From Nanobdellota archaeon (GTDB lineage: Archaea > Nanobdellota > Nanobdellia > PEZQ01): a DNA stretch of 64,000 nt. Of this stretch, positions 53,890-64,000 are shown piece by piece (the first letter of the stretch is position 1; each line of letters opens with the position of its first letter). Made by a program: the position numbers and the translations under genes. A model generated the notes under the pieces. That model had not been told where the DNA came from, ran no database searches, and saw nothing but the letters and a program-made list of their open reading frames with translations. The stretch lies in the NCBI GenBank assembly GCA_018220985.1, contig JAAOXS010000021.1, forward strand, positions 24,274 through 88,273. Reading direction: 5' to 3'.

Positions 53890-55386
53890 TTACTTAACAC
53901 GCCACTTAACACCACTATCAGTGTCCTCTAATTCAACACCCGCTTTCTTGAGTGCTGTGCGAATATCATCACTCGTAGCGTAATCCTTTTTAGAACGCGC
54001 TTCCACGCGAAGAGAAATTAACTGCTCCATTAAACCATCAATTTTGTTTTTCTTTTTTAGAGAACCACTTACTTTCTTAACTAACTCTTTCCAACTTAAA
54101 GTAACTTTAACACTAGAACCGCTTGTAACACCAATAACTATTTCCTTATCCAATCTTAAACCAAGAACTCTTAACAATTCCTTTACTGTCTCAACTGATT
54201 TTTCAAGAATTGACTTCTTATTACCCAAACTTTGAGAAACCTTTTTCAAAAAAAGCATTGTAACATCAACAGCTTTTGGAGTGTTTAAATCATCATCCAT
54301 AGCTTTCTCAAAACTAACTCTGTACTCCCTAATCCACTTATTCAAACTCTCGCTTTTACCGCCAGTGCTCTCCTGAACTCGTTCAAAAACTCTGTAAACG
54401 CGCAGAAGCAACGCTTCAGAATTCCGCACGTTTGACTTGTTAAAATCAATTTGCTTACGATAATGAGAAGAAACCAATGTTAACCTTAAAGCTTCCCAAT
54501 CATACATTTTCAAAGCATCCCTAATCAACAACATATTACCAGTACTTTTACTCATCTTTTCACCATTCAAAGTCATGAAAGTAGTGTGCATCCAATAATT
54601 CGCGAAACGCTTACTAGTAGCGGCTTCACTCTGAGCAATTTCATTAGGGTGATGTAAATACAAATGATCATAACCACCACCATGAATGTCCAAAGTTTCT
54701 CCCAAATATTTCATACTCATAGCAGAACATTCCACATGCCAACCAGGTACGCCAACACTCCAAGGACTATCCCACTTCATAATTACATTAGAATCAACTT
54801 TTCGCCAAAGAGTAAAATCATTAGGATCATTTTTATTAGTGTCTGCGTGCACACGGCACTTTGATTTTTTTTGAAGAATGGGTGTTGGCGAAAGAGTGCC
54901 ATAGTCTTTAAACTTACGCACTTTAAAGTATACGTTACCATCCTTTTCATACGCGTAACCACTTTTAATAATTCGTTTTGTTAAATCAATCATTTCCTGT
55001 ACGTGTTGTGTTGCACGAGGATAAATATCAGCCCTATTCAAATTTAGCGCGTCTAAATCTTCAAAATACCTTTGAATGAATTTTTCAACAAGAGCGTACG
55101 GATCAACTTTTCTTTCCTTAGCCCTTTTCTCAATTTTATCTTCACCCTCATCAGCATCACTTGTAAGATGACCTACATCAGTGAAGTTCTGCACGTGAGT
55201 AACCTCATACCCTTTGTAACGTAAATACCTAACGAGAACATCCCAATAAGAATACGTGCGCGCATGACCCAAATGCAAATCATCATAAACTGTTTGTCCG
55301 CAAGTATAAATGGAAACCTTACCTTTATGAATTGGTTTGAAAACCTCTTTCTTACGCGATAAACTATTATAAATTTTGAAACTCAT
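53890..55386 (-). CDS. cysS: cysteinyl-tRNA synthetase
   Basis: HIGH motif DDLHLGHARTY; KMSKS motif GEKMSKSTGN; zinc-site context CGQTVY, HVEC. Confidence 0.9.
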   Translation of the reverse strand: MSFKIYNSLSRKKEVFKPIHKGKVSIYTCGQTVYDDLHLGHARTYSYWDVLVRYLRYKGYEVTHVQNFTDVGHLTSDADEGEDKIEKRAKERKVDPYALVEKFIQRYFEDLDALNLNRADIYPRATQHVQEMIDLTKRIIKSGYAYEKDGNVYFKVRKFKDYGTLSPTPILQKKSKCRVHADTNKNDPNDFTLWRKVDSNVIMKWDSPWSVGVPGWHVECSAMSMKYLGETLDIHGGGYDHLYLHHPNEIAQSEAATSKRFANYWMHTTFMTLNGEKMSKSTGNMLLIRDALKMYDWEALRLTLVSSHYRKQIDFNKSNVRNSEALLLRVYRVFERVQESTGGKSESLNKWIREYRVSFEKAMDDDLNTPKAVDVTMLFLKKVSQSLGNKKSILEKSVETVKELLRVLGLRLDKEIVIGVTSGSSVKVTLSWKELVKKVSGSLKKKNKIDGLMEQLISLRVEARSKKDYATSDDIRTALKKAGVELEDTDSGVKWRVK

Positions 55387-55431
55387 TTTATTGCACCTAA
55401 TATTTTTTTAGAATTAAGAATAGATAAATGT

Positions 55432-55461
55432 TCACTCCTTGCAGGGACAATCACTTTTCAT
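55432..55461 (-). promoter_or_regulatory. leader mini-ORF MKSDCPCKE* upstream of cysS
   Basis: Own translation: ATG AAA AGT GAT TGT CCC TGC AAG GAG TGA. It ends 45 nt upstream of the cysS ATG. The core AGTGAT-NNN-CCC-NNN is shared with the trp and val leaders. Confidence 0.5.
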
Positions 55462-55596
55462 ATTAATTTATTATAATTAACTCCTGTTCTTTAAGATTTT
55501 CTTTAAAACAAATGCTTTCTAAACTAATTTTATTACTAAATCATTAAAAAACAGCTATGGGAATCTTTAAAAAACAATAAAGCCCGAAAATTGGCT

Positions 55597-60430: not shown

Positions 60431-61594
60431 TTAATCCCTTAACAAGAATTTTTCAAGCACTTTCTTTGCTTTAACACGCTCCTTCTGATGATTAGCCAAA
60501 TAAGAGTTCACTTTTTCAATTGCAATTGCTTTCAACTCACCAGAAAGCATATCACCATTCTTATAACTCTCATAAATTTCTTTTAACTTTTTATCATCAG
60601 GCTCGAATAAGAAATTAAGCAACTGATAAGACATGTCAACATCAGGATTACCTCCTTTTTCCCTATGCTCTTTTACAGTATCACGACCACCACTAAAAGC
60701 GCTTCCAATCTTTTTCTTAACCTCTTTCGCAGAATCAGTTGTGTAAATCGCGCTCGACGGATCTGAAGAACTCATCTTCCCACCTTCCTTCAAACCAGGC
60801 ATTAACACATTATGAATCGCGGCAGGCTTATAATAACCAAGCTTAGGCATAACATCTCGTGAAACCCTAAAATGCGGGTCCTGATCAATACCGTGAGGGA
60901 TAAGACAAGGCACATTCTTACCCTGACGAACACTCTCCAAAAAAGCAGGAACTGCCTGAAAACTCGTGTAAAAAATGCTACCAATATTCGTACTATTATT
61001 AAAACCGAAAACAGCTTTAATTGTTGAAAAAGTAATTTTTTTAGCAACACGAATAGCATTATTATACAACGTTTTCGAATAAAACGTGTCAATTAAGATT
61101 TCAGTATTTTTTGGCTTAAAACCAAGAGCGATAATGTCCAAAGCATCACTTAACGCTTGATTAGTTGTTTGCTCAAGCTCAAGATCCTGCCTGAACATGA
61201 ACTTTTCATCATCAGTCATTTGAATTACTAATTTTGCTTTGAACTTATCCTGCAACCACTTAGTGAACACGAAAGGCATTAAATGACCAAGATGCATTCG
61301 CCCACTCGGACCCCTTCCTGTGTACAAATAGAACTTCTCTTTTTTCTCGTACTTGTCAAGCAACCAGTTCAAATCACGGTGTGAAAAGAACATACCTCTA
61401 CGCAACATGAAATGAGCAGGTCCAGTGTGCTTTTCAATTCGCTTAATTAAAACATCATTAATTCGCACAGTTCCGAACTGTTTGATTAAATTATTATAAT
61501 CAATTTTACCGGACACCTCCCACGGCGTCACGACAAAACCTGTTTTATCAGTCATATTATAACTAACAAGTTCTCTTGATTTAATATTTTTCAT
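60431..61594 (-). CDS. trpS: tryptophanyl-tRNA synthetase (archaeal/eukaryotic type)
   Basis: HIGH motif GRMHLGHL; KMSKS variant GGKMSSSDP; N-terminal VTPWEV...DYNNLIKQFG. 4-bp overlap with trpB2. Confidence 0.9.
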   Translation of the reverse strand: MKNIKSRELVSYNMTDKTGFVVTPWEVSGKIDYNNLIKQFGTVRINDVLIKRIEKHTGPAHFMLRRGMFFSHRDLNWLLDKYEKKEKFYLYTGRGPSGRMHLGHLMPFVFTKWLQDKFKAKLVIQMTDDEKFMFRQDLELEQTTNQALSDALDIIALGFKPKNTEILIDTFYSKTLYNNAIRVAKKITFSTIKAVFGFNNSTNIGSIFYTSFQAVPAFLESVRQGKNVPCLIPHGIDQDPHFRVSRDVMPKLGYYKPAAIHNVLMPGLKEGGKMSSSDPSSAIYTTDSAKEVKKKIGSAFSGGRDTVKEHREKGGNPDVDMSYQLLNFLFEPDDKKLKEIYESYKNGDMLSGELKAIAIEKVNSYLANHQKERVKAKKVLEKFLLRD

Positions 61595-62850
61595 TCTAAC
61601 TCACCTCGCAAGAACTGTTCGTAACCTGTCAAGTCTAGTAACCCATGCCCGCTCAAACAAAACACTAAAACCTGATTCTTTCTTCTCTTAGCATTTTCTA
61701 TAACACTTTTTATTGCATGACAACTTTCCGGAGCAGGAATAATACCTTCAGTTTCAGCGAACAATTTTCCAGCTTCAAAAACACTTTTCTGATTATAATA
61801 CTCTGTTTTCATTAAACCATGCTCTTTTATAGCTGACAATAACGGTGCCACTCCATGATACCTTAACCCGCCTGCATGTATTGCCGGTGGTACGAACTCG
61901 CATCCAAGCGAATGCATTTTTAGCATAGGCGTTATTTTTGCAGTGTCACCAAAATCGTATTTGAACTCGCCTTTTCCCATACTCGCACAACTTTCTGGCT
62001 CTACACCAATTAATTCAGCGCCAGTATTATAGAAAGGTAATGCTATTCCTCCAAAATTACTTCCACCACCCACACAACCAATTACTGCATCCGCTTTTTC
62101 AGGCAATTGCTCTTTAGCTTCCAAACCAATTATTGATTGATGTATTAACACGTGAGTTAGCACTGAACCAAGACTATACTTGTAGTTTTCTAATTTCATG
62201 CAAGTTTCTAAAGCTTCACTTATTGCTATTCCTAAACTTCCCGGATGCTCTGGATTTTGGTCTAATAATTTTTTACCAAAACTTGTTTCTTCATTTGGGC
62301 TGGGCAGAACATGTCCGCCATAAATATTCATAATCGTTTTCCTTCCAGGTTTCTGATAATAACTACTTCTTACCATGAATACTTTACAATCCAAATCGAA
62401 TAATTTGCACGCAAGACTTAATGCACTACCCCACTGCCCAGCACCTGTTTCAGTTATTAAACCTTTCAAGCCCTCTTTCTTCGCGCTAAAAGCTTGCGCT
62501 AACGCAGTATTTAATTTATGACTTCCAGTAGGGCTCGCACCCTCATACTTATAATAAATCCTGCAATTAGTCCCAATTTTTTTTTCCAAATTCTTAGCCC
62601 TAATTAATGGCGTTGGCCTGTATTTTTTGTAGAATTCCAAAATTTTTTCGGGTATTGGAATGAACCGTTCCTTGCTGATTTCTAATTCCATACTTTCTTT
62701 TGGAAAAATTTGTTTTAATTCTTCAGGATTTATTGGTTTTTTTGTTGCAGGATTTATTGGCGGACTAACCTTGAAAGGTAAGTCTGCAGTTATGTTGTAA
62801 TAATGTTTTGGTACTTTACCAGGGACACTCAACCCTTTTATTGTTCTCAC
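61591..62850 (-). CDS. trpB2: tryptophan synthase beta-like protein, TrpB2 type
   Basis: Contains PKHYYNITADLP, the PLP-lysine motif EGASPTGSHKLNTA, GCVGGGSNFGG and GLRYHGVAP. The start is GTG at 62850 with an in-frame stop immediately upstream. No trpA is visible nearby. Confidence 0.85.
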   Translation of the reverse strand: MRTIKGLSVPGKVPKHYYNITADLPFKVSPPINPATKKPINPEELKQIFPKESMELEISKERFIPIPEKILEFYKKYRPTPLIRAKNLEKKIGTNCRIYYKYEGASPTGSHKLNTALAQAFSAKKEGLKGLITETGAGQWGSALSLACKLFDLDCKVFMVRSSYYQKPGRKTIMNIYGGHVLPSPNEETSFGKKLLDQNPEHPGSLGIAISEALETCMKLENYKYSLGSVLTHVLIHQSIIGLEAKEQLPEKADAVIGCVGGGSNFGGIALPFYNTGAELIGVEPESCASMGKGEFKYDFGDTAKITPMLKMHSLGCEFVPPAIHAGGLRYHGVAPLLSAIKEHGLMKTEYYNQKSVFEAGKLFAETEGIIPAPESCHAIKSVIENAKRRKNQVLVFCLSGHGLLDLTGYEQFLRGELE

Positions 62851-62860
62851 TAGTTTTCAT
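62816..62860 (-). promoter_or_regulatory. second, out-of-frame mini-ORF MKTSENNKRVECPW* overlapping the trpB2 start
   Basis: It starts with ATG at 62860, and SD AAGGTGA (62869-62875) ends 8 nt upstream of that ATG. It ends ...GAG TGT CCC TGG TAA, 33 nt inside trpB2. Its 5' context AAATTAATATGAAAA is identical to that of the cysS leader. Confidence 0.3.
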
Positions 62861-62903
62861 ATTAATTTTCACCTTAGAAAGAGTGTTCTCTAGCAAAATC
62901 TTA

Positions 62904-62933
62904 TCATAATTTTTGCCAGGGATAATCACTCAT
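62904..62933 (-). promoter_or_regulatory. leader mini-ORF MSDYPWQKL* upstream of trpB2-trpS
   Basis: Own translation: ATG AGT GAT TAT CCC TGG CAA AAA TTA TGA. It ends 53 nt upstream of the trpB2 start. The ATG lies about 28 nt from the centre of TTTATAAAA (62957-62965). Confidence 0.5.
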
Positions 62934-62956
62934 AAAAATAAAGTATTCAATTTTGC

Positions 62957-62965
62957 TTTATAAAA
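62957..62965 (-). promoter_or_regulatory. TATA-like box (TTTATAAAA) for the trp leader transcript
   Basis: The spacing to the leader ATG is about 28 nt, compatible with the known archaeal TATA-to-TSS distance of about 26-27 nt. Confidence 0.3.
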
Positions 62966-62977
62966 CTAACGAAAAAA

Positions 62978-62987
62978 ATTTAAAAAT
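62978..62987 (+). promoter_or_regulatory. TATA-like box (ATTTAAAAAT) for the val leader transcript
   Basis: Its centre lies about 28 nt upstream of the val leader ATG at 63011. Confidence 0.3.
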
Positions 62988-63010
62988 CAAATCATGTTTA
63001 AATTATTGTT

Positions 63011-63043
63011 ATGAATCTAAAAAGTGATCGCCCCGTACAATAG
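63011..63043 (+). promoter_or_regulatory. leader mini-ORF MNLKSDRPVQ* upstream of valS
   Basis: Own translation: ATG AAT CTA AAA AGT GAT CGC CCC GTA CAA TAG. It ends 39 nt upstream of the valS ATG. Confidence 0.5.
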
Positions 63044-63082
63044 ACCGATTACTTTATTATTCAATTTCGAGAGACTTTAGAC

Positions 63083-64000
63083 ATGACTATGGATAAGCGT
63101 TACAACGTGGAAGAAACAGAAAAGAAATGGGCGAAAAAATGGGTTGAAAACAAAACTTACGAATTCGTAGAAACCAAGAAAAACTACGTAATCGATTCCC
63201 CACCACCATACCCTTACGTATCCTTACATGCTGGGAACTTTTTTAATTTCGCTTACCAAGATTTTGTGGCACGATACAAACGACTTAGAGGATTCTCAGT
63301 ATTACACCCTTGGGGTTGGGACTGTCATGGATTACCAGCTGAAATTTTTATAGAAAAAAAATATGGGAAAACCGCTGAAAAAATAGGCATTGAAGCATTC
63401 AAAGAACTATGCGAAAAACACATATTAGAAAACATTGAAAACATTCGCGAAAACCAAGCTCAAGTAATTGGGATGAGTGTTGACTGGAGTAAACAATATG
63501 CAACAATGACTGATGATTACAAAACTCGCGTCCAAAAATCCTTTCTTGAAATGGTAAAAAAAAAATACGTTTACAGAAAAGAAGCACCCGTATCATGGTG
63601 CGTGAGTTGCCATACAGCCATTGCAGAAGCGCAAACTGATAAAATAGAAAGAGAAACCAATTTTTACCACATAAACTTACCATTAAAAAACAAAAAAGGC
63701 TCAATAACAATTGCAACAACTCGACCTGAACTAATGCCCTCATGTGTCGCGGTCTTCGTTAACCCAAAAGATGAACGTTACAAAGAATTCATAGGAGAAA
63801 TAGTTAAAATACCCTTCTTCGGACAAGAAGTTAAAATAATCGCTGACGAGAAAGCAGACCCTGAATTCGGCACTGGCGCAGTTTACCACTGCACTTTTGG
63901 AGATAAAACTGACTGGGAATGGGTTGTAAAACACAAACTGCCAATAATAAAATCAATAGAAGAAAACGGAAAACTCAACGAAAACACGAAATTTTTAAAA
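63083..64000 (+). CDS. valS: valyl-tRNA synthetase, N-terminal 306 codons (continues beyond the window)
   Basis: Own translation: MTMDKRYNVEETEKKWAKKW...VIDSPPPYPYVSLHAGNFFNFAYQDFVARYKRLRGFSVLHPWGWDCHGLP...ATTRPELMPSCVAVFVNPKDERY...ADPEFGTGAVY. This is the ValRS pattern. It is absent from the ORF track because no stop falls within the window. Confidence 0.85.
   Translation, partial: MTMDKRYNVEETEKKWAKKWVENKTYEFVETKKNYVIDSPPPYPYVSLHAGNFFNFAYQDFVARYKRLRGFSVLHPWGWDCHGLPAEIFIEKKYGKTAEKIGIEAFKELCEKHILENIENIRENQAQVIGMSVDWSKQYATMTDDYKTRVQKSFLEMVKKKYVYRKEAPVSWCVSCHTAIAEAQTDKIERETNFYHINLPLKNKKGSITIATTRPELMPSCVAVFVNPKDERYKEFIGEIVKIPFFGQEVKIIADEKADPEFGTGAVYHCTFGDKTDWEWVVKHKLPIIKSIEENGKLNENTKFLK

Follow-up and report, generated by a model that had tools for sequence, protein, structure and literature searches.

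Introduction

The closest described parallel to the element reported here is the frameshift site of prfB, the bacterial gene for release factor 2 (RF2). There, a short zero-frame open reading frame (ORF) carries a Shine-Dalgarno (SD)-like element a few nucleotides (nt) 5' of a slippery P-site codon, the A-site codon is read slowly by the very decoder that is being sensed, and a +1 slip turns production on. We find a comparable layout in short leader ORFs ahead of aminoacyl-tRNA synthetase genes in a 64,000-nt stretch of a Nanobdellota archaeon genome (contig JAAOXS010000021.1, positions 24,274 to 88,273; 'the window'), where two such leaders, for tryptophan (Trp) and valine (Val), lie back to back. 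In both, an SD-like KTGA (K being G or T) precedes a CCC proline codon and a single codon for the amino acid of the downstream gene, and a +1 slip on CCC would likewise turn production on. The spacing from KTGA(T) to CCC is close to that of the prfB stimulator, and a second Trp site (CCC TGG TAA, leading into a TrpB-like frame) has the in-gene layout of prfB. Because the A-site codon here is a sense codon read by an aminoacyl-tRNA (TGG, GTA, TGC), whereas that of prfB is a stop codon read by RF2, we regard the leaders as a variant of the prfB-type site and not as a member. They differ further in the P-site codon (CCC versus CUU), in the archaeal host, in the reuse of one design for at least 10 amino acids, and in their position: most sites lie in a leaderless upstream ORF (uORF) whose +1 frame ends on or beside the main start, and only at the second Trp site does the +1 frame read into that of a protein.

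Two other bacterial systems are related in purpose. In the trpL, pheL, hisL, thrL and pheST leaders, as in ours, a short leader ORF reports one charged tRNA and controls the biosynthesis or synthetase genes of that amino acid; the present leaders differ from these attenuators in having a single cognate codon, no terminator or antiterminator hairpins, a leaderless position and, as we propose, a change of frame as the read-out. T-box riboswitches (RF00230) resemble them in using one specifier codon per synthetase or biosynthesis operon and in serving a similar regulon, but a T-box binds tRNA through RNA structure, and neither such a structure nor an Rfam match occurs here. To our knowledge, T-boxes do not control tRNA genes, and the control of aminoacyl-tRNA synthetase levels in archaea is essentially unknown: we know of no archaeal T-boxes and of no archaeal leader-peptide attenuators.

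Frame changes in leader ORFs and at hungry codons have been described before. Frameshifting on CCC_UGA occurs in pheL, where it is regarded as incidental (PMC5009743). In the leader ORF of ermC, induced by ketolides, frame-changed ribosomes pass the uORF stop into the spacer and thereby permit downstream initiation (PMC5009743); our leaders would share this running-on of frame-changed uORF ribosomes, but ermC is bacterial, has an antibiotic as its trigger and works by unfolding a hairpin, whereas here we propose an empty A site and a +1 frame that ends on the main ATG. In the yeast element Ty1 (CUU AGG C) and in other hungry-codon shifts, the P-site tRNA slips +1 while the A site awaits a scarce aminoacyl-tRNA (PMC5009743, PMC8211752). 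Ty1 uses the slip to make Gag-Pol at a fixed ratio; in the present leaders the codon matches the regulated gene, and the slip would be a specific sensor. For Archaea, programmed frameshifting is represented in a 2021 review by one -1 case (PMC8211752). Leaders of the kind described below were found neither in a full-text literature search nor in the reviews of Atkins 2016 and De Lise 2021, nor in a 2026 preprint on Nanobdellota genomes. The element joins two known principles, the regulatory +1 frameshift and the leader ORF that senses a charged tRNA, in an undescribed form.

Results

One cassette and one cognate codon in seven synthetase leaders

The sequence anatomy of the leaders, its statistics and its conservation are reported here as observed. 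The source genome (G000; 0.66 Mb, 33% G+C, 84% complete) was scanned for mini-ORFs upstream of all long ORFs, and the downstream genes were identified by NCBIfam. Seven leaders share one design, in which an SD-like KTGA is followed by four bases, by CCC (CCT in the Ile leader) and by a codon for the amino acid of the downstream synthetase (Table 1). The codon directly after the proline codon is the cognate one in all seven. Aligned on CCC, the sites read [AG][GT]TGA-N-YRY-CCC-XXX. No such leader stands before the genes for MetRS, TyrRS, LysRS, GluRS or AlaRS in this genome.

The proline codon is an unusual choice. CCC makes up 8.8% of the proline codons in long ORFs, yet it occupies seven of the eight P sites, the exception being that of the IleRS leader. 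It is also the only proline codon that still encodes proline (CCN) after a +1 slip, whatever follows, which would allow one cassette to serve all amino acids. Such re-pairing from CCC-N to CCN is possible at 62921-62919, 62824-62822 and 63032-63034. The only tRNA-Pro found in the genome is tRNA-Pro(UGG). This tRNA reads CCC weakly, and weak reading is a known condition for +1 slippage.

Conservation 5' of CCC is at the level of nucleotides. An SD-like AGTGAT, GTTGAG or GGTGA ends 3-4 nt before CCC, and of 18 sites not chosen for this element, 15 have KTGA at a distance of 4 nt 5' of CCC. The wobble T of GGT, AGT or GTT is invariant while the encoded amino acid changes. KTGA(T) is complementary to the 3' tail of the 16S rRNA (GGATCACCTCCA), and the genuine SD sequences of this genome are GGTGA.

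The +1 frame runs from the cassette to the main gene

After CCC, the +1 frame is open as far as the main start in all seven leaders. Shuffling of the spacers gave this openness a p value between 0.12 and 0.25 at each locus, and multiplied together these come to 6e-6. In the Cys, Ile, Thr, Asn and Pro leaders the frame ends in a TGA that overlaps the main ATG (ATGA), which suggests coupling by termination and reinitiation. The original prediction had treated mini-ORF and main gene as two cistrons; what links them, and was absent from it, is this +1 frame from CCC to the main start codon. The relation holds in relatives as well. In 11 of 12 of their leaders that directly precede a protein gene, the +1 frame reaches the main start, and a search made with no frame constraint placed the ATG in frame with CCC in all 10 matches of family f27 that carry a GGTGA cassette.

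The Trp leader has two stages. The +1 frame of its first site runs into a second cassette, whose own +1 frame coincides with the TrpB-like frame (GGT AAA GTA CCA ..., GKVPKHYYNITADLP). The possible starts GTG 62850 and TTG 62832 lie 18 nt and 36 nt past the sole SD (GGTGA) and have no other well-placed SD. Because this SD serves only ATG 62860, the TrpB-like protein would most simply be made as MKTSENNKRVECP continued by GKVPKHYYNI..., through a +1 shift. Four leaders of family f27 are two-stage in the same manner. In the Trp leader of the window and in the Lys, Cys and His leaders of loci L053, L054, L056 and L057, the second cassette lies in the +1 frame of the first, with a stop right after the cognate codon or at most 4 codons on. 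No natural example is more compact than the divergent Trp/Val region, with two promoters, three putative shift sites and a putative in-gene shift within 270 bp.

The mini-ORFs are predicted to be leaderless

The promoter geometry typical of this genome was read from 375 of its ORFs, those with an upstream gap of at least 50 nt. Starts of TTTAWA (W, A or T) cluster at -34 to -29 from the ATG, with 76 cases versus about 2 per position elsewhere, and GGTG has a genome-wide peak at -12/-11. In 110 aligned promoters an A-rich B recognition element (BRE, -7 to -3) is followed by TTTAWA and then by a T-rich stretch before the ATG, which lies about 30 nt past the first T. From these peaks and this alignment, leaderless genes appear to be the norm in this organism and SD-led genes a second class.

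The synthetase leaders follow the same geometry. TTTAWA begins at -31 from the mini-ORF ATG in the Trp, Ile, Asn and Pro leaders, at -32 in Val and Ser, and at -33 in Thr; the Cys leader, whose box is the weakest, has a one-mismatch CTTAAA at -34, and the box originally proposed for it begins at -35. The five leaders beyond Trp, Val and Cys (Ile, Asn, Pro, Thr and Ser) were found with no TATA criterion, as were eight leaders of relatives (four from genome G001, two from family f4 and two from metagenome contigs), which have an exact or one-mismatch box at -29 to -32. No SD lies upstream of the ATGs of the synthetase mini-ORFs; within 25 nt before the Trp and Val ATGs there is no GGTG, and the sequence there is T-rich instead. 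The Trp promoter combines a consensus TATA box with a poor BRE (TCGTTAG), which we attribute to the abutting of both BREs within the 12-bp gap between the boxes. As all eight boxes fall in the genomic TTTAWA peak or at most 1 base off it, all eight synthetase mini-ORFs of G000 are, judged by their distance from the TATA box, very probably leaderless.

These data agree with most of what the original prediction had claimed. It had the Trp and Val mini-ORFs diverging with their ATGs 77 bp apart, and these coordinates proved correct on re-reading. Its A/T boxes at about 28 nt from the leader ATGs have their centres at 28 nt (TTTATAAAA to 62933) and 28.5 nt (ATTTAAAAAT to 63011), and its cysS box at about 31 nt has the centre of TCTTTAAGA at 31 nt from 55461. 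Its proposal that the mini-ORF ATG is at or very near the transcript 5' end fits the promoter geometry of the genome, with a spacing that is kept in the synthetase leaders of G000 and of relatives. Its further suggestion, a main ORF that is SD-led or internal, stands in part. GGTG lies 9-12 nt before the main ATG in five of eight cases, inside or beside the genomic GGTG peak, and at -15 in AsnRS; the ValRS gene has no clear SD, and the Trp copy, at -13, serves another ATG, that of uORF2 at 62860.

The only public sequencing run that holds the locus is X1; X1 and X2 are a sediment metagenome labelled RNA-Seq. Of the words sampled from the locus, X1 contains 86%, with a depth of about 4x. Depth stays even where its contigs span the promoter spacer, the contigs show no direction, and because the spacer is covered as evenly as the rest, X1 is probably DNA despite its label.

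The design recurs in relatives

The distribution of the design is patchy: within the class it recurs in four further families, before synthetases, cognate tRNA genes, cysteine synthase and small winged helix-turn-helix (wHTH) genes. Counting relatives, about 27 loci follow the cognate rule. A class-wide pattern search for TATA-ATG-KTGA-CCC in 401 genomes gave about twice the control and was noisy, so that it was useful only after enriched families had been picked.

In genome G001, of the same family as G000, the IleRS leader (MVCGDYPIFGSCPIL) has two CCC ATT sites, the ThrRS leader reads MRVDHPTHV, and the +1 frame of the ValRS leader (MNRTALMGECPVLPLY) ends in TAG, 2 nt before ATG, like the Val leader of the window. 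The ArgRS leader of G001 (MYGECPRNRQYF; MYGECPR, with AGA; L041, G001:C6:64500-64960, minus strand) encloses a gene for tRNA-Arg(UCU), which follows the mini-ORF and precedes ArgRS; the +1 frame of the leader passes through this gene without a stop, 50 codons in all, and ends in an ATGA on the start of ArgRS. Family f4 has ValRS leaders with ...RGDGPV... and ...RGDEPV..., family f2 has ThrRS leaders, and a metagenome contig has the leader MKSGELPVLQ with an ATGA ending. In the family of locus L005 (G011:C14), ValRS has a leader of another kind, a 31-codon leaderless ORF (MTLAPKPDFKTIEQKQ...) in which the N-terminus of ValRS (MALSQKPDFKEIEQRW...) is repeated.

The leaders of family f27 follow the pattern G-[DE]-Y-P-X. 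They precede IleRS and ValRS, and the cognate rule extends to tRNA and biosynthesis genes: CAC or CAT stands before tRNA-His and HisRS, TGG before tRNA-Trp and TrpRS, ACA before tRNA-Thr(UGU) and ThrRS, TGC before cysteine synthase, and AAA before a LysM-like RAM protein. AAA also precedes tRNA-Lys(UUU), and AAG precedes tRNA-Lys(CUU), an anticodon that we read ourselves and that ARAGORN calls otherwise; for two intron-bearing tRNAs the ARAGORN anticodon call differs. At L052, L053 and L056 (genomes G129 and G230), leaders with AAA or AAG stand before the matching tRNA-Lys gene, with no synthetase gene after it in two of them. By this arrangement, the sensor seems to control tRNA genes too, isoacceptor by isoacceptor.

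Small proteins accompany some of these leaders. At L054 and L055 (G129), the +1 frame immediately behind the final shift site in the Cys and Thr leaders codes for small winged-helix proteins (...LS.RSVR.AL..L...); since only frameshifted ribosomes would make them, they are possible starvation-induced regulators. At L056 (G230:C45), positions 307-538 of the reversed locus encode a 77-aa stand-alone RAM-domain protein after the Lys leader and tRNA-Lys; this protein best matches LysM, a lysine regulator, in the C-terminal half of the latter (5.5e-10).

The divergent Trp/Val spacer and its genes

The spacer between the two operons spans 62851-63082 (232 bp), from the GTG of the TrpB-like gene (62850, minus strand) to the ATG of ValRS (63083, plus strand). 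When close relatives of the ValRS locus were sought in metagenomes and in GTDB, none exceeded 61% identity, and the back-to-back placing of Trp and Val leaders did not turn up a second time. The flank of the ValRS leader in G001 looks like coding sequence and has no diverging leader. A homologue of the TrpB-like gene is absent from 13 related genomes in which such leaders do occur; the gene is perhaps an insertion that separated TrpRS from an older Trp leader. An additional tiny frame, ATG TTT AAA TTA TTG TTA TGA (MFKLLL), occupies 62994-63014 on the plus strand, in the interval from the ValRS TATA box to the Val mini-ORF. It is probably untranslated because it is 7 nt from the TATA box, too near for a transcript start.

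Table 1. Leaders, cassettes, +1 frames, promoter elements and genes of the window and of the other G000 synthetase leaders. Peptides are given up to the stop codon.
Feature	Position	Strand	Sequence or remark
Trp mini-ORF 1	62933->62904	minus	ATG AGT GAT TAT CCC TGG CAA AAA TTA TGA (MSDYPWQKL); CCC TGG; TrpB-like/TrpRS
Val mini-ORF	63011-63043	plus	ATG AAT CTA AAA AGT GAT CGC CCC GTA CAA TAG (MNLKSDRPVQ); CCC GTA; ValRS
Cys mini-ORF	55461-55432	minus	ATG AAA AGT GAT TGT CCC TGC AAG GAG TGA (MKSDCPCKE); CCC TGC; CysRS
Ile mini-ORF			MNFARVDRPILQQ; CCT ATT; IleRS
Thr mini-ORF			MRVDRPTL; CCC ACA; ThrRS
Asn mini-ORF			MGVCPNC; CCC AAT; AsnRS
Pro mini-ORF			MKLGECPPF; CCC CCA; ProRS
Trp cassette 1	62930-62916	minus	AGTGAT, TAT, CCC (62921-62919), TGG (62918-62916)
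Trp cassette 2	62833-62816	minus	GTT GAG TGT CCC TGG TAA; CCC at 62824-62822
Val cassette	63023-63037	plus	CCC at 63032-63034, GTA at 63035-63037
Trp site-1 +1 frame	62816..62917	minus	GKNYDKILLENTLSKVKINMKTSENNKRVECPW; 33 codons; TAA at 62818-62816; within ORF 62816..62929
Shine-Dalgarno GGTGA	62869..62873	minus	8 nt before ATG 62860
uORF2	62816..62860	minus	MKTSENNKRVECPW; starts at the SD-led ATG 62860
Val +1 frame	63036..63080	plus	YNRPITLLFNFERL; 14 codons; TAG at 63078-63080, 2 nt before ValRS ATG 63083
Cys +1 frame	55383..55442	minus	19 codons; TGA at 55385-55383 overlaps CysRS ATG at 55386-55384
Trp TATA box	62957-62965	minus	plus-strand letters TTTATAAAA, minus-strand TTTTATAAA; TTTATA begins 31 nt 5' of ATG 62933
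Val BRE	62971-62977	plus	CGAAAAA; matches genome BRE consensus
Val TATA box	62978-62987	plus	ATTTAAAAAT; TTTAAA begins 32 nt 5' of ATG 63011
cysS TATA-like box	55488-55496 region	minus	TCTTTAAGA / TCTTAAAG; cysS leader is 55432..55496
TrpB-like pyridoxal phosphate enzyme	61591-62850, as read from GTG	minus	NCBIfam NF009057, 5e-190
TrpRS	60431-61594	minus	NCBIfam NF008927, 9e-150; 4-nt overlap with the TrpB-like ORF
ValRS	63083..64000, continues past the window end	plus	NCBIfam; 788 aa in the contig
CysRS	53890-55386	minus	TIGR00435, 2e-145

Discussion

We think that the leaders are best read as hungry-codon +1 frameshift sensors, similar to that of RF2, on leaderless uORFs, and we put the probability of this reading at roughly 0.66. 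They would probably be a novel means by which a cell detects that charged tRNA is running short. Each of the divergent BRE/TATA promoters would start a transcript directly on the ATG of a mini-ORF of 9-10 codons, and its cassette would place CCC in the P site and the one cognate codon in the A site (TGG ahead of TrpB-like/TrpRS, GTA ahead of ValRS). While the cognate aminoacyl-tRNA is plentiful, the ribosome would stop 2-4 codons further on, with 40-60 nt still separating it from the main gene. Under a shortage of this aminoacyl-tRNA, the A site would stay empty, peptidyl-tRNA-Pro would slip from CCC to CCN, and the ribosome would proceed in the +1 frame as far as the main start codon. There it would terminate on or beside the ATG and hand over to the main ORF by translational coupling, and it could possibly also guard the transcript against premature termination. 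The +1 frame of the Trp leader would lead to the second CCC-TGG-TAA site, which would also be reachable from the SD-led ATG 62860, and a second shift there would give reading straight into the TrpB-like protein.

Several observations weigh against this reading. The IleRS leader of G000 has CCT, which is unable to re-pair after a +1 slip, and the SerRS leader has no CCC at all (ATG AGT TAT GAT TTC CGC CAG TCT ...). The SerRS leader (L108, G000:C23:56314-56402) lies outside the window; it has its TATA box at -32, and its +1-type frame ends in an ATGA on the SerRS start. Only the removal of one G would bring it fully into line with the design, giving GAT TTC CCC AGT (D-F-P-Ser) and a +1 frame ending in ATGA. 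The contigs from X1 agree with the assembly at the odd sequences of both the SerRS and the IleRS leader. The cognate-codon rule has one clear breach, the ValRS leader of L072 (Ga0180433_10041916), which is nearly identical to that of L070 but has CCC ATA (Ile) and not CCC GTA. Two sites of family f27 are non-cognate or ambiguous (a GGT site in a Thr operon and an ACA mini-ORF before a His leader), the ThrRS leader of G001 has one stop within its +1 path, and most other families of the class have ValRS without such a leader, many of these genes being plain leaderless ones. Because some f27 leaders precede only a tRNA gene, translational coupling is not the whole output; these leaders imply an added effect on transcript completion or stability. 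Caution is also called for as we infer from sequence the transcription start sites, the frameshift event, the direction of regulation and the role of the SD-like element, which would have to act on elongating archaeal ribosomes.

Much of the evidence could also be read as stalling alone, in which a pause at the cognate codon after proline frees the ribosome-binding site of the main gene or stops premature termination and the frame does not change, in the style of trpL/pheL or ermC. Such a pause would suit proline, which donates the peptide slowly when it occupies the P site. The cognate-codon rule and the leaderless mini-ORF fit this explanation equally well, and leaders before tRNA genes need an output at the RNA level in any case. 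A mere pause, however, leaves unexplained the near-exclusive use of rare CCC, the open +1 frame to the main ATG with its ATGA endings, and the second cassettes in the +1 frame, and a single cognate codon instead of a run is not what it would lead one to expect. When we folded eight leaders against dinucleotide shuffles, the z scores of the minimum free energy lay between -1.9 and +1.0, with no significant or shared structure and with neither consistent alternative hairpins nor a fold that sequesters the SD. We therefore consider stalling alone unlikely. Arrest by the nascent peptide is unlikely as well: only 4-9 residues precede the site, and the conserved positions are nucleotides. A hairpin attenuator was dropped for want of a shared fold and of an Rfam riboswitch.

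A second doubt concerns the promoters. Transcription might start elsewhere, with the A/T boxes belonging to an AT-rich spacer and the mini-ORFs being internal uORFs or untranslated. Such boxes are common at 33% G+C, and the cysS box is imperfect, with an alternative (TTTTAAAG) 12 nt further upstream. Against this, each of the 16 leaders found irrespective of a TATA box has the hexamer, exact or with one mismatch, at a distance of 29-35 nt from the ATG, at most one base off the genomic peak, against a background of about 0.5% per position; the mini-ORF ATGs lack an upstream SD and, as in other leaderless genes, follow a T-rich, initiator-like stretch. Together these features make a distant transcription start improbable.

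The cassette itself allows another explanation, and this too counts against a frameshift. Its KTG is a GTG or TTG in the +1 frame, present at -8 to -6 at every site of G000, so the long frame could initiate there independently, as one of two overlapping uORFs, with the short mini-ORF modulating it by occlusion or reinitiation; the long frame of the Trp leader was indeed listed as a GTG-started ORF (62816..62929). Such GTG or TTG codons, though, have no SD and lie 4-22 nt inside a leaderless transcript, and a ribosome stalled on the cognate codon would hide the GTG, giving less synthetase in starvation, which is the wrong sign. As the conservation of CCC would also go unexplained, we hold this to be quite improbable. 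A T-box-like RNA, in which the specifier codon after CCC would pair with the anticodon of uncharged tRNA with no translation involved, would account for the agreement of the codon with the downstream enzyme, and even with the anticodon of the tRNA isoacceptors encoded next to it, as well as for the similar regulon of synthetases and biosynthesis genes, but we dropped it as very improbable, since this codon invariably shares its frame with an ATG at the leaderless position and with a stop after it, the +1-frame features would be meaningless for an untranslated RNA, no fold or sequence is conserved 3' of the mini-ORF, and an Rfam scan of the window at the gathering threshold found three tRNAs only and no riboswitch.

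The +1 frameshift sensor may extend well beyond this genome. We lean slightly towards a class-wide regulon in these Nanoarchaeota-type DPANN archaea, in which a portable leaderless module would sense each aminoacyl-tRNA by +1 frameshifting and switch on the matching synthetase, tRNA isoacceptor, biosynthesis genes (TrpB-like, cysteine synthase) and wHTH genes in the +1 frame. If the frameshift reading is true, tRNA charging would be sensed by the reading frame itself, through a 15-nt cassette on a leaderless transcript with one codon per gene, and the cassette would be a compact, portable part that simple reporters could test. Among archaea it would be the first +1 frameshift with a regulatory role, and it would also be the first case of a frameshift sensor of sense-codon decoding that serves as a general regulon. 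For these organisms it would amount to an archaeal counterpart of the bacterial T-box and attenuation systems, one that works through the reading frame of the ribosome.

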